A stretch of DNA of 64,000 bases from Rhizodiscina lignyota. Lineage: Eukaryota. The position numbers and the translations under genes were made by a program. The DNA is taken from contig ML978128.1 in assembly GCA_010015805.1 (NCBI GenBank), positions 868,001-932,000 of the forward strand, in the 5' to 3' direction. Position 1 is the first letter of the stretch; every line of letters begins with the position of its first letter. This document shows positions 7,665 through 61,956 of this stretch, piece after piece. The notes below the pieces were generated by a model. The model had not been told where the DNA came from and did no database searches. It saw only the letters and a list, made by a program, of their open reading frames with translations.

Positions 7665-7708
7665 TGATTGCTTTGAACATTATGATTGCTTTGAACATTA
7701 TGATTGCT
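7665..7708. repeat. Perfect 18-bp tandem duplication (TGATTGCTTTGAACATTA x2 + TGATTGCT)
   Basis: Read directly from the sequence. Confidence 0.9.
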
Positions 7709-7994
7709 GTAAATTTTATACGGCGACTTGCACGTGGAGGTGGTCGCTATCCGAACGCAATCCTCAACTCCAAGGGACCCCAGCACTTCCCCACACCAAT
7801 GGCAGTTAGCAGAGGTTCAGCCATGCCTCGGTCCCGCATCTAAACGTCGAAACACATCCGGCGCAAAACAAGCTGTTGCTCTTCCACACTCAGCAACGCT
7901 TAGGTGAGGTTGTGCCTGAGATGCGAGGCCACCTTCGCGCTGCATCTAATCACCAGCAACCACCTGGCTGACGAAATCTCGTCGACGCGCCGAC

Positions 7995-9778
7995 ATGTCG
8001 TCCGTAAGCTCCTCATCGTCCTCCGGAAGTGGTGGCATCAGACCAGAAAACGTCGATCCGGTAGTACGAACAGCGTTGCGATACACATTGAGCGAGCGCG
8101 AATACAGGCTGCTACACCAATACCTGCTATCACGCGCGCCAGCCGTCCGGAGGAGAACTCCTGCGCCCCCGAAGTATGCCGCCATTGTCAAGAGCAAAGA
8201 CGACTACAACGCGGCCGCTATCCGCGCATCGTTCAGAGTGTTCGCATCCACATATGCAGCGCTGAAACTATGGGATACCATCAAGACCAAGATATTGTCA
8301 AGAGGCGCGCCCCAACCGTAAGAGCACTGAGTTGCGACGGAAATGCGAGTGTGCTAATTGCGATCACAGTTCCAAAACAAGGACGTCAATACTCAAGTCT
8401 GGCGCCTTCCGATTATCATCGTCTCTCGCACTCATCCTGCTGTTCCACCGTCTCCTCCATCGCTTCTTCACTCGACTCCGAGAGAGCCTCCTAACCGACA
8501 ATGCGCGCCCTTTCCGTCGACGCAATCCACGCGTTGCGAGGACACTTACCTCACGATTAACTCCAGCAATTGGCGCAAGCTTAGCTGGCTTCTTCCTTGC
8601 GATCAGCCCGGCTGATCAATTGCGCATCACCCTCGCGATATATTTCTTCTCACGATCGCTCGAGTTCATATACAACGCTCTGGAGGACAAGGGATACTTC
8701 AGCAATCGGCCATGGTGGTTTGGCAGTTGGATGCTTGTGCCTCCTGCATTTGGCCAACTGCTCCATGCTTTCGTCTTTGATCGAGATTGCTTCCCAAAAG
8801 ACTTTGGAGGCTTCATTATGAAGAATTCTGGCCCTTATCTCCAAGCGAAGCCGACAGACTACCCCGGAAACCTCGAATGGCCAGGAACATATGAGATAGT
8901 CGACAGCTTGGCTGAAATCTCTAGATCAAAATGGCCGTAGGTATACCTTGACGAAAAAACCCTTATTGGAGCTAATTGCAAGTCACAGTGCATTTGTATC
9001 GCCAATCCTCTTCCCCGCTGCAGAGACTCTTCCAAGGAGTCTTTCTGCCATATCACCCATCACTAGCCCAGCTCATCCGTCCATTAAATCGCTTTCTTGC
9101 GCCCTTCTTCATCCGTCTGATCCTTCTTGTCTTCGGACATATATAACATATTATATCCAAGTCTTCCCAAATATCGCCCGTTTCTTTGCCATCATTTTCA
9201 GCGCCGCCAGCGTTCCCCGATACAAAACTTTCTTGTCTGACCCTGTTGCTTCAATTAATCGCCTCAGCAAGGCCATCCTTCGAATGAGCTTGTTTGTCAC
9301 TGGCGCCATTGGAACTAGCTGGGGCTCAATCTGTTTCTTTCAACAATACCTGCCAAAGGGCTTTCTCGCAACGCAGCGTTGGTTTCTGGGCGGTTTCCTA
9401 GGAGGTTTATGGGCATTTTTGGAACGCAAGAGCGGCAGAGCAAATTTCTTTTACATGGCACGATTAAGTATTGATAGCTTCTGGAAGGTGGGCGTTAAGC
9501 ATGGCTGGTGGAGAGGGATCAAGAACGGTGATGTCTTGTTGTTTGTAGTGAGCCTGGCGATTATTAATGGCATCTATGAGAAGAGGCCGAGGGCTGTGAA
9601 CGGGCCGTCCATTAGAAAGAGCCTGGGTATGCTGAGGGGCGATGGGTGGGTGGATCGTGTGGTGGTTATCAAGCCGAAGTCGGAGAAAGAAGAGCAGGAC
9701 TTGGCTGAGAGAGATATCAAAGATGAAGGGACGGATTTAGAAAAGGAGGAATTGGCGGAGGCTAAGAAAGAGCAGTAA
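7995..9778 (+). CDS. Integral membrane protein, TMEM135-like
   Basis: Three ORF pieces joined by GT-AG introns 8318-8369 and 8937-8988. Motifs GQLLHAFVFDRDCFP and CALLHPSDPSC; multiple hydrophobic segments. Confidence 0.8.
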
Positions 9779-10147
9779 CTTTTCTTAATTCTTCTCAGCG
9801 CTTGATATGAGACATGTCGTTCACGGCGTAATGTTTGGTCTGCCTCCGAGCAAGGCCTCGTAAATTGTTCTCAACCTGTATTCCATACGATTTATGCAGC
9901 TGTACAAAATAATAAGCATTAAGGTTGTCTCATTGGCCTTCGGACGGACATCATGTGCCCAGAACTAAATCGGCAATGAGGCAATGGCGGGGCGCTCGGA
10001 ATCGTGGACGGAGACTAGAGCGGCGTCGCATCCTCCGTACGCCAAACTTATATAAGATAAACGCGCTCCCGATGTCGTTAATCTCAGATGAATTGAACGC
10101 GTTATCAATTGGAACTTCCGAATTGTCATAACTTTCATTGCACGATC

Positions 10148-11286
10148 ATGGCTTCACCCAAGACGCTCGCGGAGCCCAAACCTCCAGTGCCATTGAATAT
10201 CCCTAGCGGGAAAGCCGTGAAGGTTTCTTGTATAGACACGTAAGGCTTCATATTCTATTTAACCCCCGGTGAGAGCAAATAATTAACATTCCCTAAAGCA
10301 CTTCGCGTATAAAGCTCCCAACGCAAACAATTCTGATTCCATACATTGCCGATCACAAGTACTACCAATGCCCGGCTTTCTCTTTTCTCATCGAGCATGA
10401 ATCGGGCAAGAAATTGCTCTTCGACCTTGGCATCCGCAAGGACTGGGAGAACATGTCCCCGTTCTCGGTGTGGCGCGTGAAGAGCAGGGATTTCACGGTC
10501 GGTGTCACGAAGAACTGCTCTGACATTCTCGTCGAGAACGACGTGTCCCTTGACTCCATCAACGCCATTATCTGGAGCCATCACCATTGGGATCACCAAG
10601 GCTGCCCCAAACTCTTCCCGCCCTCCACCGACTTGGTCGTCGGCCCTGGGTTCAAGGGTGCATACACGCCGGGCTGGCCGATCGAAAAGGATTCGTCTCT
10701 AAGGGAGGACGACTGGGAGGGCCGCAACTTCTGGGAGGTCGATTTCACGAAGAAGCCGTTTAAGCTTGGTCGGTTCGAGGCCTATGACTACTTTGGTGAC
10801 GGTTCGTTCTATTTGCTGCACACGCCGGGCCACACCATCGGGCATCTCTGCGGTCTTGCGAGGACTACGAGCAACCCGGACAGCTTTGTCTTCATGGGTG
10901 GGGATGCGTGCCATCACGGTGCCGAATTCAGGCCTTCGGCGTGGTTGCCTCTCCCTGCTGAAATGACGCCTCATCAGCTCAAGACACTCAGCTTCCCCTG
11001 CCCTGGCTCGGACTTTTTGGACATCCACCCCCAGAAAGATGCAAGCAAACCGTTCTACACACCTGCACCGGGCTTCAGCCACGACCATGATACGGCTGTC
11101 TGGACGATTGAGGGCTTGGAGGAGTTTGACGGTCATGACAATGTGCTGCTTGGCATTGCACATGACGCCACGTTCTTGGGCCAGCTTGACATGTTCCCCA
11201 AGACGATGAATGATTGGAAGGAGAAAGGAGACAAGGGTAAAGTGCTTTGGCGGTTCTTGGAGGACTTTAACGTGAAGCCGTCGTAG
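10148..11286 (+). CDS. Metallo-beta-lactamase-fold hydrolase (AHL-lactonase/gamma-lactamase-like)
   Basis: SHHHWDHQG (HxHxDH), TPGHT, GGDACHH and C-terminal AHD metal ligands. Exon 1 10148-10239, intron 10240-10298. Confidence 0.9.
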
Positions 11287-11584: not shown

Positions 11585-12255
11585 CTATTTGCCCACAGCG
11601 TATTTCTTAGTCCACTCCTTCGCCGTCTTCTCGAACGACTTGTAGTCGTTCTTGTACACCTCCGCGATGCTCGACTCCACCGCGTCATCGGGGTTCGGCT
11701 CGATTAGCAGGTTGCGCGTCATATTGAGCACGGCGACGATCTTGTTCGGCGGCTTCCACTCGTCGGTGCGCAGCATGCCCAGGCACATAGAGCCCTTGCC
11801 ATCGTTGCTGATGTTGGGGTGGTAGATCTTCGTTTGGAAGTTGACGACGGGGGGCTTGAAGGGATAATCTTTGGGCAGAACGAGGATGAGCTTGAAGTGG
11901 CCGCCCTATGGAGTGTCAGTGCTTGAATGATAGCGCATTGCTGATAGCGTATTGAGGGCAAAGGGCTTAGATTGCGGTGTAGGTGGGCTTCTGCAGACAT
12001 ACCGCATAGACAGATTGCTCAGGACCATCCATCACGATCTGCCAGGTGTGAAGATCAGAGTCATCTTTGAGAGTGACCTTCATGCCCTCTGGAGGGTCGG
12101 ACTGAATCTCGCCCAATTCCTGGCGGTGAGTTAGCAGACGAGTCCAACAGGTTGCAGCGAGTGGATAACGTCGTGGAGCTCTGGAAATGAAGCCTCTACA
12201 TGACGATAAGAGAAGTTAGTACCTTGGTGATACGTTTTCCGCTGCCTGCCTGCAT
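11585..12255 (-). CDS. Ubiquitin-conjugating enzyme E2
   Basis: KRITKEL...GPEQSVYAGGHF...YPFKPP...KIYHPNI...MCL (active Cys)...PNPDDA. Exons 12255-12223, 12119-12003, 11905-11585. Confidence 0.92.
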
Positions 12256-13758
12256 GATGGAGAGTTGTGCTGTAGTACAAAGAAAAGTAGAGCTTTCTTG
12301 CGCTGAGATATATCAGTGGGTAAGTGTGGCGGTGCTAGCCGGGGGGATTCCAAACTTTTCGTGTTGGGTTTGATGAGTTCAGAAAGGAAATTATTGCATG
12401 AATTACAACTGACAAAGATGCCCTTTTATGCACTGCAAAGCGCCTGTTCTCCGGGCAAGTCAAGCGCAAGCGCCCCGTGAATGAGCGATTTGTTTCACTG
12501 AGTTCTACACCTGCAGCACAAGGCAGCGAATTGGTGATAATGGCCACACTGGAGGGCGATTCGGGTTTCACCCTTCACAGAAACCGCGGTATCTCAAATC
12601 TATCTGCTGAAGAAGATTTCATAAAGGCACGGATACACTCCTATATGTTTTCCGGTTTCCATAAGAGCCTTAGGTTGACTTATGGGGATTCCGCTCTATT
12701 TCCAAGCATTGACAAAGCTGCAATTACATATCAACCCACCGGGACATCCGCCGGTAGTGCATCGATATCTAGTTGTAGCACAACAGAAGCGCCTGCCTAT
12801 CCTCAGACGCTTCCATATAGAAGCCTTCCAGAAGCCTTGCGCCCAGCGGATATTGCAGCTGTGCTCCTCGCTGCAAGCCACCGACCAAGGCCGCCTTTAA
12901 AAAGCACTACCAAGATACGTCGATGCCCTTTCGATTTGATTTCTGCATTCTGCTCTCGGGCCTCAAGAGCAAATATGACTCAGCAAAGGATATATCGTGT
13001 CGACTCAAGAGAAATAGACGTAGAAATCAAGGCACGTGAGCCTTCGAGGGATACCGTGACATCGTGTGTAAGGATCCTCCTGCATCCAAAAAGTGCTTTT
13101 AGATGCTTCTCCTACCAATTCTGCGATTGGGCCCCAATTGGTGGTCCAATAAGCGCTCCTTTCCTACCCTTGAGACTCTTGGATCTTCTATGCGTTTCCT
13201 TGATTTTGGCGCTCCTGCAGCTATGCTTCGCGCGCGCGTTTGAGGCCGCTCTCCTCTCCGCCAGTCTGACATGCCCAATTCCTGACGTGGCATAAGACCC
13301 TGGTCGCTTTCGACCGTAAAAGGCATTCTGAGATTCGGGATCTTCTGGAGGATTCCAATGTTGTTGCCTTCCTGCGAGTCTGCCTGGCTTGTTGTCAGTC
13401 GCACGGCTACTCAGCCAACCACCATCAATAATGAGGCACCGCCCCAGTGCATTAGGCGCATACTGGGCCGTGCCGTGCAGGCAGACAGGGACACGGAAGC
13501 TTGGCCCAGGTACCGCATATAAATACAAGGCGCGCTCCCACCGGCGGCCTCTCTTCTTCCCCACGCCCTCCAACATACAGTCAGAGCCAGCCGAATATTG
13601 CGCTAGATTCGCTTGCGGATTCTAGCAAAGTCTCTCAGATCAACTCCTTCAATCCTCACGAATTGAAGAGTTCCTGAAGGCTTCCGGAGCTCCATGCACA
13701 ACGCGTCAAGCTAACTTACTTCGCTCCTTATAAGTCAACAACGTGTCGCTCGTTACGT

Positions 13759-55391: not shown

Positions 55392-56966
55392 CTACCAAAT
55401 GTATACAGGATTCCCTTGATCTGCATATTATGAGAGACTCGGTCTGGTTTGCAGGTTTACACGCACTTACCGTTGAGACCAATGGAGTAGTGTCGCTGGA
55501 ATGTCCTGCTAAAATACCTGTCGTTGCCGGCCCACTGACCATCAGCGTGATCATGCAGCTCTTGAGTCTTTTCTGCTCGTAGCCTTTCTCGCAATGCGGC
55601 ATCATCTTCCGGAGCTTGATATTTGTTAGACTTGAACCGTAGAAAAGTGTCTTGCTGAGAATATACTTGTCTTAATTCTTGGAAAGTCAATACTAAGAAA
55701 AAAACGATTCCGGGGTAACACTTTATTCTCTTTGAGAAATGGTTGTCCGAGAATGGCATCCGCGACTTGGTTTTTAACAACGTAGAAAGTTTCGTGGAAG
55801 TACTTTGGCCAACCTTTTATGCGAAACTGTAATCGTATCTTTCCGCAAGATGCAAATTGCATGCCCCCAGCAGCATCAAATATTTCAACGCCCTGTGAAC
55901 AATATGATTCGAAGCCAAGTGACCTGACCTTCGTTAGAGAAATCAAGTTCCCCGGCACCGCTTGCGTGTCAAGCAGAGCCCGAAGGTAAACTTCGTCGTC
56001 GCTCTTGTCCCGGATGATCATGTCCACTTCAAAATCTTCGTCATTTGAGCTGGAGGTTGATGTTGCTGCCGTGTTCAGCTCACCGCTGTCCTCTTCTTCC
56101 CTTGGGGCAAAGCCGTATTGCACAATTGCGTTGCGAAATCGATTCTGATCTTCAGCTAACTTTCCGAATTCACATACCGGAACGTTGTACTCAATCGTGT
56201 ACATACTGTGAAAGTCGATGTAGGCAAGGGAATGTAGGGAGGAGTCACGCTTGCGTCCTTCGACTCGAATTGGGGGTAGCAAAGGTGTGCCCAGTCCGGT
56301 GAGCTGCACCTCGGGTGCCTTGCGACCTGTGTATACCCTTGCATATCGACAATTTTGGGCTTCGGATACAGGTAATGCTGAAGCTGTGTGGAAAAGGATC
56401 GGTCTGCATATAGAGGCTCCAATTAAAGTGTGTCCGTTACAATCTGAAGGCGGAGGTGGTTGAGAACTCGACTTACAGGCAATACACAAAATCATGTTCC
56501 TGCTTCCACGCTACGAAGTAATGGATGCGAACTTGCTGTGCGTTCGGTAGATCGCGTGGTTTAAACGATGCGAAAATCTCGAGGGAGGTTTAGAATAGCT
56601 CTGATCTAATACGATTGTGTCACTGACCTTCCCAGGTTTGAAAAATGCCCGGTCTTTTTTGCGAAAGCGATCATCTCTCGTTCGAGATGGGCTTCTGGAG
56701 CTGGAGATAATGCCACCGACAATTTCGCTTTGGGGTATATTGTTCGCTGCATCAGCCTGGTCAGAATCATCGTCCTTGTCATCCTCATTGAGCGTTGACC
56801 GAGTCCCTTGAGGGTTCCCCTACTCTGGAGAACATGGGTCGTAGGAATGGTTACTTGTATTGTGCAATCTTGTTCCATCCTCAAGAACCCACGCCTTCTC
56901 ATCTGCGGACCAAAAGCGATTCTGCTCATAGCAGCCGTCCCATACGGCCTCTCCCCATCGAGACAT
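55392..56966 (-). pseudogene. DUF6590-like domain + retropepsin-like aspartic protease fusion; in-frame TAG at 56822-56820 (pseudogene, null allele or readthrough)
   Basis: CACC-ATG at 56966. Domain 1: DDRFRKKDRAFFKPGK|IF...YFVAWK...YCL|PIL...PPIRV...AYIDFHSMYTIEYNVPVCEFGKL. Domain 2: RALLDTQA..NLIS...ETFYVV...DAILGQPFL. Predicted introns 56578-56627, 56404-56476, 55615-55666, 55421-55470. Confidence 0.7.
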
Positions 56967-57352
56967 GGTGTGCAAGCCTTTGAAACGTTATGCGAGCGGC
57001 AGCGGAAATAAATGAGGCTTCAAGGGACAGTAGTTTCACTGTGTGAAGGTGATATTCAACGTTCTGGAGATCCAACGTTCTGGAGTTGCTTCAAAGAACA
57101 AGAGCATTAAGGAAAGATACTGCGACAAAGGTGAAGTAGTAGCAGGCTTGGGCAGCCTAATTGCTTCGACTCTGCAACCCCGCACAAGGCTGAGGGCTCT
57201 GATAGAGACCAGGTACTGTACTTTAGACATTCCTCATCTCGGCCACATACAATTTATCATTGTTGTGCTCGACGCTGAACATTTTACAACTTGCTGCAGC
57301 ATCCAGGTGATTACCTAGTTTGCAGAAGGATCGACAAACACTTACAGCAACT

Positions 57353-58362
57353 ATGTCTGGCTGCGAACCTAGTTATGTTGGACTTGCCAAGTTCTTTGGC
57401 CTTGCTGACGGGCTGGCAATCTTCAGACGGTTCAAGGAACTGAATACACGCAACTTGCTATACCTCCAAGCCGAGCTCATTCATCTGGAGCAGAAGCTGT
57501 ACACTCATTCGAGCCAAGATTCGACCTCTTCTGACCCAAACTGCCGGCAGTACTCTACATATGCATTGCGGTTGATTATGTCTCCAAACTCTCCAGGCAG
57601 CACTGATGGTGCACAGTGGCAGACAATCCTTGACATCAGAGAGAAGTTGAAGGAATATAGTAAGTGTAGCAAATGATGAACGGTATCTCCACTCAAATCA
57701 CTAGATGTGGCTTTGTTACACCAAGCCGAGCTCCACTCCTTACCTCGTCCTACCCCGTATGATCTTGAACTGGTCCAACGTTGGCTGAAGCATCCAGAAG
57801 GGGGAAAAGACTTTCTCAAAGGCTTTGAGAGTGATACCTGGCAGAATGAAAATGCGACCGATCTTGTCACAGTCTCTTCAGGACGTAATTGGGATCCTTT
57901 CCTCAAATGGGTGGCAGAGCGTCTGGTTCCGTTCCTTTATCATCGCGGTTGCTTTCGTTGGAAGGTCCGTAATAACATGCACAACTGCTATGATCATCTC
58001 CATTTAACTGGTCTGCCTAGAAACCATTGGTCGGCCACGAGGAACTCGGCATCGTCCAATGGAAAGATTCTCGTTACTCCATGGCAGCCCGCATGCTTGG
58101 AGCTGCGGCAGCGACAATTCTTCTGATTGTCTCCGTTCTGACTCTGTATTTCATTCGTAAGCTCATCAATAGACTCTTTGCTGTGATGGGGTTTTCGGTA
58201 GCTTTCTCCATGGCACTTACGTTCTTCACAACGGCAAAACCTATCGAAATATTTGCGGCAGGGGCAGCGTAAGTTCTGTGGAGTTCGCCATCGTCCAGTA
58301 GAGCTGATCATGCTAGTTTCGCTTCGGTCCAAGTTGTTTTCATTGGTAACACGCAGGCTTGA
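57353..58362 (+). CDS. DUF6594-like protein with C-terminal transmembrane helices
   Basis: AIFRRFKELNTRNLLYLQAELIHLEQKL, IREKLKEYNVAL, DLV, TM helices and EIFAAGAAFASVQVVFIG. Clean GT-AG introns 57660-57704, 57965-58020, 58269-58316. Confidence 0.85.
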
Positions 58363-59882
58363 AGCGCACATCGAGTTTGTTAAGTTAGCGCTATATCAGC
58401 AAATTATCAACACGGTAATAGATGAGCTTCATCGGGTTCGCCATGGCTCCCGCATGGCCCTAGGTGGCAAATTCCGAAGCGTCCAATCTTTTCCTGACGG
58501 TTAAAGAGTCTATATCGGGCAAAGTTAAATAAAACGTATGGTGATCTGCCAGGGAATTGTTGCGGCTTTGCTACACACCATATCAAGAATTGCATCAATT
58601 ATTGATATGGTATGATCCTTCCGGTGCAATTGTATGTTCGGATGCCTTTTGGAAAAGAAACGAGATTGGCGGAGCCTGTCGCTTGCTTGAAATTACTCCT
58701 ACTGATCTGAACCGCCTTGTCATAGTATATCAGCCAATCAAGTCACTATCGACACCGAGCGGCCTCGAATGCTGGAGCAGACCCACCACACGAGTGCCGC
58801 ATTTTGATGAGGCCGCCCTGTAGATTGACAGCTAATCGGTGAACATCATTGGGCGAGCGTACGACCAAAGAGAGCGGCGCCTGACTCCAAGGGCAGAGAG
58901 AAGCACGTTGACTTTCCAAAATTGGGTTGTCGTGGAGGGTGGATGCTCTCAGCTCATAATGCCCCCTGCAGCAGTACACAAAGGCGGCATCCAATAGTGG
59001 CTTTACGACTTCCAGCAACTGTGGGACAAGGTGCTTCTTTCGAACACGTTTCAGCTCCCCCAATACCAAGCGGAACGGCATGCGATTACCGAGATCGTCC
59101 CATCTGGATGGTCGGGAGTGATGAGCGGATAGACATTTACACTCTGAAGCACAAGGCCAAGAAACAGTTGATGAACCAACACCAAGTTCCGACTTCATTG
59201 ATTAATCTAGAAGGTGAAAATGGACTATATGGACGGAAATAGCGCCCAGCAGGCGATGAGAATGTCCTTTCGTTGGTTGACATCGGGAACGAGATTGGAC
59301 TCCTTAGACCTCGAGATCAAGCCAAGGCTGGGCTCTGCGATTTCTTGGCATTCACGAGATCGCCGAAAAGGGCAAGGTGCCACTACCGGTACGCATACCT
59401 AGCTCCGAAATCACCACCTTGCACACCAAGGTCCTCGCCCTAAGAATCGAGCTCAACGAATTGCAAGCCAGCGAGCACGGTGACTTTGACGAGCCCTCCT
59501 ACGATCGCGACCTCTACCAAGCAGGACCTATTACAGGTACTTAAGCATACAGCACCAAAAGCCTATCACCACTTCATATTTAGGACGCAGGCCAACCACA
59601 AGCTCTTTTCGGTATTTATGAAGGAACACAGGCACAGAGGTGAAGTAGGAAAGGTTATGAAGTCATATAGGGCAAGAGTCATCTGTTTTGAAAGGGAAAG
59701 GCACTGTGGAAAGCTCATATCAGATAAGGAATTACTGAATGCATAATGAGACTTTCAAGGTCTATCCTTTTGCGCATATTCACAAGCATTTAACTAGCTT
59801 CATATATCACTTTGTATAGTTAGTCAACTACGATAGTTACCCCCACGTGGGCCAGCCATGGCCTAAAATGGTGAATGAAAAT

Positions 59883-59900
59883 TCCTCCTCCTCCTCCTCC
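59883..59900. repeat. (TCC)6 microsatellite
   Basis: Read directly from the sequence. Confidence 0.85.
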
Positions 59901-60180
59901 CAGGCTCCTCGAAGGCTGGATCTCTACACCGTACGCATCCCCTGGACAACGACATGGAGAGGGCCCAGCTGGGCTCGCACTCGCTTAAAGCTTCTGCGCG
60001 TGGTAGGTAATCGTCAGGACACTCACCCGCTTCTTGTTCGAGAACTCGATGCCTTCGAGCTGAGTGATTTTGTTCCTGTTACCAGTTTACAAGCCCCCGG
60101 AGTGGCAATGTCTTGGAGAAGAGATGCTCTCCGCACATCTTAAGTATGTTCTGTTGTATTCATACAATCTACTTCGACAA

Positions 60181-61956
60181 CTAGTTCCCGGCCTCATCAC
60201 TTTTCCCGAAACAAGGGAACTTCTCTTTCGAGTCCGAGACCTTAAACCCGATACATTTCCAGCAGCTAAGCAATCCATCCGGATCATACCGCTTCTTGAT
60301 CTCCAAGAGCCTCATGTAGCTGCTCTCACCCCACCAGTCTTGCTGCCAGTCCACAGTCCACGGGAATGCTTCGTTCATGTAGGCTCCGCTATCTGGAGCT
60401 AGCTCTTTCGCTTTCTCCATCAGCGAGTTCTGGGACGCAATGGCCTTCTGTTTCTCCTCCACAGTACTATTCCACGGCCAAACCCCTGGCCAACTGAGCT
60501 CCCAGATCGAATTGCGCCATGACGGCGTGATGGAAGTATCGTTGCCAAAGCTCTTCCCTTCCCGGGAGGAGAGGTAGTAAGGCGTGTCCATCGGTATGTA
60601 CGGCAGAGCGCCCTGGGCAACGATTTCGCCGAGGAAGTCCATGAGTTTAGCCCGTCCTTCTGTTGTCTCGAATAGAGATGCAGGCATGAACCGAGCGGCA
60701 ATAATCAGGCCTTGTCCAACGGAAGCCGTGTTTGGCACGACATATTTCTGGTAGAAAGCGTTCCATGATGGGAGCATCTCGATGACCACCGTGCCGTTTT
60801 GGGACTTTACGAACTCCGTGGCAGGTCCCATCGACTTCTCTGCTTCTTCCAGCGAGAGTAAGGGGTTAACATGGATCAGATTTGTTGTCATGAATTGGAT
60901 GTGTCCGCCCCATCCTTCCTTCGCCCAACGCAACGAATTGTTAACGCACATGTTGAGAAACGGGAGGACGTTCGACATATCCGGCGCAATAGGATAACTC
61001 ATCGACGCAACCGCAAGTGGGATAACGGGTTCCACCTTGTGTGTACTTTCGATCACGACGCCGAAGGTCCCACCTCCGCCGCCTCGTAGCGCCCAAAACA
61101 AGTCCGGGTTTTGGCATTCATTGGTCGTGCGAAGGACGCCATCTGGCGTGACTATTTTGTATTGTAATACGCGGTCGACACCAAGGCCGTAAACAGGGGA
61201 CAAGACGGAGTGGCCGCCCCCCTGTGTAAACCCTCCGGAGACGCCGATAGTCGATCCGTATCCACCGATATAAGTGACTTTGTGTTTGTCAGCGAAGGTG
61301 TATGCCTCGCCCATTGTGACTCCAGCGCCGACTGTCATTGCCACTGTCGCCTGCTTATAGGTGTGCCCACAGCTATCGGGAACGAACGCATCCGTTAGCG
61401 AAATATCCTGGAGCCAACGCATCCAGAGCGCTAGTGAACCCTTCAAGCTGTTACGGGTCAAATAGTCGTGCCCAGTCGCCTTGATGGACAGCCTGGTCCC
61501 AGTTCTGCGCGAGAATTCGAATGCCGCTCGTATATCTTCCGCCGTCTTGATGGCAACGTAGTATGGAGAGACGCTCCCCTGGTTGCAGGACACATCTGTG
61601 TATGCGAGGGGATCGAGAGGATTCATGCTATCCAGAAGGCATTGATTCGAAGCATTCGAAGCGCATATTTCGTCTTGAGAGTTCATGAATCCGGCATAGA
61701 GATCTATCCGTATGTCTGCATCCGTATAGTTCTTCTGCAGCGCGGCACATGATGCAGGATCACGATCGTGTGGATGTCCTTCGTAAAATGAAAAGCAAGG
61801 CAATGCGAGTGGAGTGCCACGGAAAAGGCGTCCACCGACAGTCTGATTCAATTGCTGCCAGTTGTCATTCGGTCTTTGAGCATTTTTGCACAAGACGAAA
61901 GGAAGGAGACAGAGTAGATAGAAGAACAGAGAACCCATGAAGTTGACGCCGAACAT
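60181..61956 (-). CDS. Secreted FAD-linked oxidoreductase, berberine bridge enzyme/VAO family (isoamyl alcohol oxidase-like)
   Basis: Signal peptide (LFFYLLCLLPFVLC), IKATGHDY flavinylation His, GGGHS, WALRGGGGGTFG, GAYMNE...KKRYDP. Intronless; the start could be 61956 or 61938. Confidence 0.92.
   Translation of the reverse strand: MFGVNFMGSLFFYLLCLLPFVLCKNAQRPNDNWQQLNQTVGGRLFRGTPLALPCFSFYEGHPHDRDPASCAALQKNYTDADIRIDLYAGFMNSQDEICASNASNQCLLDSMNPLDPLAYTDVSCNQGSVSPYYVAIKTAEDIRAAFEFSRRTGTRLSIKATGHDYLTRNSLKGSLALWMRWLQDISLTDAFVPDSCGHTYKQATVAMTVGAGVTMGEAYTFADKHKVTYIGGYGSTIGVSGGFTQGGGHSVLSPVYGLGVDRVLQYKIVTPDGVLRTTNECQNPDLFWALRGGGGGTFGVVIESTHKVEPVIPLAVASMSYPIAPDMSNVLPFLNMCVNNSLRWAKEGWGGHIQFMTTNLIHVNPLLSLEEAEKSMGPATEFVKSQNGTVVIEMLPSWNAFYQKYVVPNTASVGQGLIIAARFMPASLFETTEGRAKLMDFLGEIVAQGALPYIPMDTPYYLSSREGKSFGNDTSITPSWRNSIWELSWPGVWPWNSTVEEKQKAIASQNSLMEKAKELAPDSGAYMNEAFPWTVDWQQDWWGESSYMRLLEIKKRYDPDGLLSCWKCIGFKVSDSKEKFPCFGKSDEAGN

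Follow-up and report, generated by a model that had tools for sequence, protein, structure and literature searches.

Two genes of families without assigned function lie head-to-head in the genome of Rhizodiscina lignyota, and their arrangement raises the question of whether they work together and, if so, how. We analysed a window of 64 kb, which means here the whole stretch of DNA under study, in which a minus-strand gene (NA57DRAFT_77565; protein P0001) encodes a DUF6590 domain fused to a retropepsin-like domain, and a plus-strand gene (NA57DRAFT_77566; protein P0002) encodes a DUF6594 membrane protein; the pair spans positions 55392-58362. A first-pass annotation had proposed that the pair forms a protease-effector module. 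Our analysis makes it moderately probable that the locus represents a module of two genes, one retropepsin-like and one of DUF6594, which is conserved in filamentous ascomycetes and acts by the mechanism set out below. That the two genes are functionally coupled at all we regard as very probable.

Both genes of the pair are intact. Searches with a read-through translation of the minus frame and with exon 1 of the plus gene detected P0001 and P0002, respectively; the six-exon splice of the minus gene equals P0001 to the letter, and the four-exon splice of the plus gene equals P0002 exactly. A GT-AG intron script revealed five introns in the minus gene, all in the range of 50-73 nucleotides (nt; 69, 50, 73, 52 and 50 nt). 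The spliced model is supported by three observations: the DUF6590 match, which spans 57-146 of the profile at 43 bits before splicing, widens to 3-146 (58 bits) after it, the alignment to the stand-alone Xylaria homologue P0015 crosses the exon 4/5 junction, and one open frame of 294 codons holds both DUF6590 and the C-terminal domain, so that the fusion of the two is real. The first-pass annotation had assumed a premature TAG in need of repair. No repair is needed, because one TAG falls in intron 1 and a second in exon 3, whose reading frame is a different one; a pseudogene was ruled out, as the spliced model is open and has its DUF6590 N-terminus restored. The annotated start codons and the 386-bp spacer between them were confirmed, and the spacer presumably acts as a shared promoter region. 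The description of the block as unlike its flanks did not hold: its guanine-cytosine (GC) content of 0.45-0.50 is not distinctive against 0.40-0.59 in neighbouring 500-bp bins, which ruled out a compositional island.

The N-terminal part of P0001 belongs to DUF6590 (PF20233), with its 58 bits standing against a curated cut-off of 27 (E 1.4e-15; profile length 152). DUF6590 was the sole Pfam family on P0001, and residues ~246-370 had no Pfam match even at E<=10. The nature of this C-terminal domain emerged from its relatives. Direct comparison of P0001 with Ddi1 by phmmer was weak (E 0.19), but a phmmer search of 1.84 billion representatives detected 21 proteins related to the C-terminal domain at E<=1e-3, and a Pfam scan of 19 of these relatives found matches to Asp_protease_2 and/or gag-asp_proteas at E<=0.01 in 11; relatives with phmmer values of E 1e-6 to 1e-4 pass these models. 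Repeat-protein or spurious matches (P0007, P0009, P0024) and long two-domain proteins (P0013, P0020) were left out of the alignments (A1 and A4). A profile of 16 relatives, searched against the sequences of the PDB, matched the yeast Ddi1 protease domain (2i1a) over the whole domain with E 1.8e-7. The single-sequence AlphaFold2 (AF2) model of P0001 was useless (predicted local distance difference test, pLDDT, 29.8), whereas the model of the domain from a 43-row alignment reached a pLDDT of 86.9 and a predicted template modelling score (pTM) of 0.77. Its top Foldseek matches were the RVP domains of Ddi1 proteins (Toxoplasma, Leishmania, yeast and human Ddi1/DDI1/DDI2; E 2e-6, prob 1.00, query template modelling score, TMq, 0.56-0.62), followed by Rickettsia APRc and then by the proteases of Rous sarcoma virus (RSV) and of the human, simian and feline immunodeficiency viruses (HIV, SIV, FIV). 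Features and structure neighbours in the ESM Atlas likewise pointed to RVP_2, gag-asp_proteas and Ddi1. By structure and by profile, the C-terminal domain of P0001 belongs to the retropepsin fold class, and its predicted model shows the one lobe of ~100-120 residues that defines this fold. The aspartic-protease fold named in the first-pass annotation therefore stands, although Pfam lends it no support. Neither PADLOC nor NCBIfam gave a match at E<=1 for P0001, P0002, P0015 or P0030.

Several relatives (P0008, P0012, P0022 and P0023, as well as P0013 and P0020) have two copies of the domain per chain, like a single-chain pseudo-dimer, and P0008, P0012 and P0023 keep DTG in both halves. Such tandem proteins would suit a domain that functions in dimeric form.

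The three large exons of P0002 scored 63.6, 35.7 and 54.2 bits against DUF6594 (PF20237; curated cut-off 30) and together cover profile positions 1-231 of 238, so both family assignments of the first-pass annotation were correct. All Atlas neighbours of P0002 are DUF6594 proteins (0.97). A Kyte-Doolittle scan places three hydrophobic segments at the C-terminus of the protein, behind a soluble, helical part of ~205 residues; the same scan found no hydrophobic segment in P0001, in agreement with the topology first described. The last hydrophobic segment (..EIFAA..AFASVQVVF..) is the most conserved stretch of DUF6594, with near-invariant columns in alignment A3. The DUF6594 profile matched no PDB sequence at E<=10, and beyond the DUF6594 family the Atlas model of P0002 has no neighbour in structure (template modelling score <=0.35). 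DUF6594 is a fungus-only family; some genomes hold several copies, with at least five in Phialocephala subalpina.

Are the two kinds of gene neighbours elsewhere? Scanned for a DUF6594 pattern, metagenome contigs yielded 237 stretches, 188 of which were confirmed; the best 80 were kept and represent 57 unique loci. Searching with P0001 by tblastn revealed weak matches to its C-terminal domain adjoining several DUF6594 genes. The columns of A1 that span the retropepsin-like domain were then turned into a hidden Markov model (HMM), which we ran on all 3578 open reading frames (ORFs) of at least 60 amino acids (aa) in the 80 loci. Of the 57 unique loci, 28 contained matches, 31 in total, with E<1e-3 and scores reaching 109 bits; none of the 31 lay farther than 2572 bp from DUF6594. 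The near flanks, within 3 kb of the DUF6594 match (205,505 bp), thus contain 31 matches and the far flanks beyond them (223,857 bp) contain none (binomial p 1.2e-10); even at E<=1 no further match appeared in the loci, and the remainder of the 64-kb window had none. A retropepsin-like gene was present as the immediate neighbour in 17 of 20 loci with at least 2 kb of flank on both sides and in 16 of 18 with at least 3 kb. When the well-flanked DUF6594 genes were clustered, 13 of 15 clusters at 60% identity and 11 of 13 at 50% had the partner. It lies on the opposite strand in 30 of the 31 matches, with 16 loci arranged head-to-head, 10 tail-to-tail and 2 with a partner on both sides. An all-against-all BLASTP of 1342 flank ORFs, which made no use of the HMM, gave the same picture: retropepsin-like groups, found in 11, 6, 5 and 4 loci, were the sole widely recurrent neighbour, and the other flanking genes vary by locus (HLH, kinases, Nop14, fungalysin, RNase PH and others). 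The window pair shares at most 46% identity in DUF6594 and 33% in the partner with the fetched loci and is therefore a further independent instance.

The conserved partner does not include DUF6590. For the Pfam scan of the flanks, 12 duplicate loci were dropped first and 8 loci had no qualifying ORF, which left 439 ORFs (>=80 aa, within 5 kb) from 60 loci. None of the 439 matched DUF6590, and neither did the 30 partner ORFs or the 19 scanned database relatives. An association of DUF6590 with DUF6594 was thereby ruled out, and the fusion is a trait of the window lineage that lies outside the conserved module. The neighbourhood enrichment on which the first-pass annotation had staked its proposal is therefore real for the retropepsin-like domain and absent for DUF6590. 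Among the 439 flank ORFs a single one, in locus L066, matched Asp_protease_2; 1 of 30 partners passed a curated Pfam cut-off, and partner ORFs with long N-terminal extensions matched no Pfam family in these. Surveys of neighbourhoods by domain would miss the pair, because the partner family is too divergent for standard models.

Two loci, L019 and L034, which belong to one DUF6594 clade, have retropepsin-like genes on both sides of DUF6594. Both flanking genes lie on the opposite strand and come from two different retropepsin-like subgroups, which points to a three-gene arrangement in the ancestor of that clade. In L058 two DUF6594 genes lie in tandem, with no retropepsin-like partner detected.

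The identity matrices of DUF6594 and partner are correlated (r 0.71; 0 of 5000 permutations as high), with r 0.37 when pairs at least 60% identical are removed. This co-divergence shows the linkage to be old and retained; taken alone it is no demonstration of co-evolution. The partner genes are under purifying selection, with ratios of non-synonymous to synonymous substitution rates (dN/dS) of 0.05-0.27 in six pairs of diverged orthologues, in which dS is saturated. The partner evolves faster than DUF6594, e.g. with identities of 0.2-0.4 against 0.6-0.7 in one clade.

Three pairs of near-identical contigs differ mostly in one of the two genes. Between L066 and L067 the partner ORF differs by 8.3%, compared with 0.24% in DUF6594 and 0.67% in the rest, with 27 amino-acid and 4 synonymous changes. 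The partner differs by 2.7% against 0% between L005 and L008, and DUF6594 by 2.25% against 0% elsewhere between L017 and L021. Most of the changes fall in low-complexity or disordered tails, and strain mixing in the metagenome assemblies may contribute.

Does the retropepsin-like protein act as a protease? The alignment (A1) and hmmalign place D269-T270-Q271 of P0001 at the position of the catalytic triad, where D-T-Q replaces D-T/S-G; the aspartate (Asp) is present and glycine (Gly) is exchanged for glutamine (Gln). The Gly of the triad is required for catalysis in retroviral proteases. Ordinary proteolysis is therefore doubtful for the window copy, and from the protease role first assigned to it the fold remains and the catalytic motif does not. 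The site is covered by 28 partner rows: 15 show D-T/S-G, 3 DTQ, 3 DAG, 2 DPQ and 1 DPH; DTT, DTA and DNS occur once each, and one row has lost the Asp, which is thus conserved in 27 of 28. D-T-Q-C is common to five database homologues from three fungal classes, including P0015 (Xylaria), P0018 (Flavoplaca) and P0025 (Pyrenula), and for this reason D-T-Q is not a private decay of the window copy. The occurrence of D-T-G, D-T-Q, D-P-Q and D-A-G within one family offers a natural series for studying when a retropepsin ceases to be an enzyme.

The simplest reading of a pair that has been kept together is an enzyme with its substrate, or a regulator with its target. We propose that both genes are expressed together, which at the window locus would occur from the divergent spacer, and that the retropepsin-like domain would dimerise as Ddi1 and retroviral proteases do. 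With both proteins in the same compartment, this dimer would engage the DUF6594 protein, anchored in the membrane, by its cytosolic part. Members with D-T/S-G would cut the DUF6594 protein and so release or activate it; the D-T-Q copies, including that of the window, would perhaps only bind or regulate. The logic may be likened to that of DDI2 on NRF1 bound to the endoplasmic reticulum (ER), or to that of proteases on gasdermins. Judged from the sequences, cleavage of DUF6594 by its partner across the family is possible, with the balance leaning somewhat against it. For the D-T-Q copy of the window cleavage is less probable still, and binding without cleavage would be just as plausible there.

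Several points weigh against this proposal. P0001 has, besides D-T-Q, one additional residue in the loop following the Asp, and 13 of the 28 partner rows deviate from D-T/S-G, which casts doubt on classical catalysis in roughly half of the family. The start codon of the minus gene hinges on intron 1, which has a weak 5' site (GTTCTT) and is backed by the database annotation alone. Three of the 20 well-flanked loci (L024, L040, L058) have no detected partner, and 29 of the 57 unique loci gave no match, but in most of the 29 the flanks are not long enough for a verdict. Since the 80 loci were chosen as the best metagenomic matches to the DUF6594 subfamily of the window, some related lineages may weigh too heavily even after clustering. 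The DUF6590 part, which only the window copy has, is left without an explanation by the pairing. The data establish the gene models, the folds, the topology, the conserved linkage, the co-divergence and the purifying selection on the partner genes; that the two genes are expressed together, that the retropepsin-like domain dimerises, that the proteins touch, that one cuts the other and what this does to the cell are steps that we infer.

The strongest alternative, which we consider less probable but serious, keeps the functional pair and takes the retropepsin-like protein for a pseudoprotease, i.e. a dimeric binding module that would hold, chaperone, inhibit or neutralise the DUF6594 protein, as in a toxin/antidote or an effector/guard pair. 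The motif D-T-Q-C/A in the window copy and in a conserved subclade (the five database homologues and 3 partner genes) fits this explanation, and so do the DPQ, DPH, DAG, DTT, DTA and DNS variants, the partner without Asp, the faster evolution of the partner and the concentration of differences in the partner gene in L066/L067 and L005/L008. Against it stand the Asp kept in all partner rows but one, the full D-T/S-G in slightly more than half of them and the tandem relatives with DTG in both halves, which are more easily explained if some members at least depend on catalysis.

It is improbable that the linkage is only regulatory or historical, due to a shared promoter or a co-duplicating block, with proteins that do not interact directly. 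The evidence for coupling is all genomic, which would suit such an explanation, but the pairing persists where DUF6594 identity is as low as ~33%, extends over at least 12 clusters formed at 50%, and is found amid unrelated flanks. It also occurs in two arrangements, and the tail-to-tail cases make a shared promoter insufficient as an explanation. Descent from a mobile element, as its remnant or cargo, with a retroelement-derived gag-protease and a membrane gene spread by transposition and not for a cellular function, would account for the retroviral-type fold and for many copies at many genomic sites, but is very improbable given that the 439 flank ORFs contain no reverse transcriptase, integrase or gag domain, that the two genes lie on opposite strands, that the closest structures are cellular Ddi1 domains rather than retroelement proteases, that orthologous loci share flanking genes (HLH in L002/L066; RNase PH and RING-SAP in L052/L063) and that the partner genes are under purifying selection.

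The conserved module of retropepsin-like and DUF6594 genes thus remains our preferred reading. A bolder view of the same pair, as a new and widespread conflict system of filamentous fungi serving regulated cell death, allorecognition or a selfish toxin-antidote function, is in our opinion unlikely. The fast-evolving retropepsin-like protein would then sense or license, with the variable N-terminal domains of the partners (DUF6590 in the window) as sensor parts, and the DUF6594 protein would act as executioner at the membrane. Three weak signs point towards cell death or allorecognition, namely the many copies per genome, the faster evolution of the partner and the three contig pairs with one-gene differences, and we give this outcome a correspondingly small chance. 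Were it true, it would add a third protease-type logic to the S8 and caspase-like controllers of fungal gasdermins. In either case the constant partner of Ddi1/retropepsin type provides a first functional context for DUF6594, and the pair could reveal a new form of regulated proteolysis at the membrane or a new fungal module of cell death or conflict.

Table 1. Positions of the gene pair and its parts in the window, and of neighbouring features in the window and in metagenomic loci (numbers preceded by L).
Feature	Position	Strand	Remarks
Coding sequence of NA57DRAFT_77565 (DUF6590 + retropepsin-like protein, 426 aa)	55392-56966	-	six exons: 56966-56889, 56819-56628, 56577-56477, 56403-55667, 55614-55471, 55420-55392
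Coding sequence of NA57DRAFT_77566 (DUF6594 membrane protein, 286 aa)	57353-58362	+	four exons: 57353-57659, 57705-57964, 58021-58268, 58317-58362
Divergent spacer between start codons, 386 bp	56967-57352		ATGs at 56966 and 57353, head-to-head
First 'in-frame' TAG	56820-56822	-	final three bases of intron 1 (56888-56820)
Second 'in-frame' TAG	56511-56513	-	within exon 3 (56577-56477), other reading frame (..YFVAWKQ..)
DUF6590 domain, residues 85-210	56145-56645	-	PF20233; broken by introns 2 and 3
Ddi1-type retropepsin-like domain, residues ~246-370	55613-56039	-	profile, AF2, Foldseek, Atlas
Active-site triad codons D269-T270-Q271	55962-55970	-	A1 alignment and hmmalign; D-T-Q replaces D-T/S-G
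C-terminal region of P0002, three hydrophobic (membrane) segments, residues 208-282	58075-58347	+	Kyte-Doolittle
Interval between DUF6594 gene and oxidase gene, 1.8 kb	58363-60183		ORFs of 100-151 aa
BBE-type FAD oxidase gene	60184-62094	-	
Open frame of 998 codons	30650-33643	-	between ATR/Mec1 kinase gene and XPG-like gene
Asp_protease_2 match	L066:2353-2979	-	
Retropepsin-like genes on both sides of DUF6594	L019:8447-8821, 11988-12524	-	
Retropepsin-like genes on both sides of DUF6594	L034:5794-6171, 10004-10801	-	
Tandem DUF6594 genes	L058:5211-6082, 7673-8732	+	
Protein kinase neighbour	L040:6231-9872	-	
Protein kinase neighbour	L051:2732-4419	-	
Protein kinase neighbour	L055:11558-13150	-	
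Protein kinase neighbour	L066:6242-8002	-	
HET ORF	L009:5566-6129	-	
HET ORF	L026:864-1481	-	
HET ORF	L030:5085-6422	-	

Some further features were noted around the pair and its counterparts. In the window, the ORFs between the DUF6594 gene and the flavin adenine dinucleotide (FAD) oxidase gene had no Pfam match at E<=1e-5, and the 998-codon open frame between the ATR/Mec1 kinase gene and the XPG-like gene matched no Pfam family at the same threshold. Four unique metagenomic loci have a protein kinase gene downstream of DUF6594 on the opposite strand; chance may explain this, as kinases are common. ORFs of the HET (heterokaryon incompatibility) type lie a few kb from DUF6594 in three loci, and one of them shares its open frame with a Ras-type GTPase domain. 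L030, L073 and L074 share a conserved downstream gene of the Clr5 plus ankyrin type.

How does the pair compare with known systems? The closest likeness is to Ddi1/DDI2, whose RVP domain gave both the best profile match and the best structural matches to the window domain. DDI2 is reported to cleave ER-membrane-bound NRF1 (PMC7369636, PMC10502413), and a Ddi1-type protease acting on a membrane-bound protein is what we would tentatively propose for the window pair. The differences are considerable: P0001 has no UBL, HDD or UBA domain (Pfam at E<=10), its triad is D-T-Q and not D-S/T-G, and the putative substrate, in contrast to NRF1, has no bZIP or other DNA-binding domain. Nor do the genes of DDI2 and NRF1, to our knowledge, lie side by side. 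With its deviant triad and without the accessory domains of Ddi1, P0001 is best classed neither as an orthologue of Ddi1 nor as an active peptidase.

A second comparison, already drawn in the first-pass annotation, is with the fungal gasdermin-protease clusters. The known partner proteases of gasdermins are of the S8 or CHAT type. In clusters such as HET-Q1/HET-Q2 of Podospora the gene of a protease is reported to adjoin that of a membrane-acting protein, again in filamentous ascomycetes (PMC8851545), and the window pair resembles them in the conserved adjacency of a protease-type and a membrane-protein gene, found in 17 of the 20 well-flanked loci. The analogy goes no further: the membrane partner is DUF6594, with membrane helices of its own, and the fold of the protease is that of a retropepsin, neither S8 nor CHAT. 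The window pair is not a gasdermin cluster, and a link to gasdermin-type death effectors or allorecognition is speculation. The main text of a 2025 review of fungal regulated cell death does not contain the words aspartic, aspartyl, retropepsin or DUF.

A retropepsin fold encoded beside a membrane protein is also found in bacterial Rlo systems, which are periplasmic or linked to an ATP-grasp ligase and form one-strand operons. The RloA structures 9g58 and 9g59 were among the Foldseek matches of the window domain, with E 1.3e-3 to 1.8e-3 and thus far weaker than Ddi1. Both window proteins are members, by curated thresholds, of Pfam families without assigned function, and in the literature searched no mention was found of DUF6594, DUF6590, PF20237 or PF20233. 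Searches of the literature on fungal pairs of retropepsin-like and transmembrane genes, on Asp_protease_2 and on gag-asp_proteas revealed nothing on a pair of the window type; PMC10799480 only counts protease domains derived from transposable elements. The retropepsin-like/DUF6594 pair is therefore apparently undescribed. A protease-fold gene paired with a membrane-protein gene is a known kind of arrangement, and what appears to be new is the combination of a retropepsin-like protein with DUF6594.

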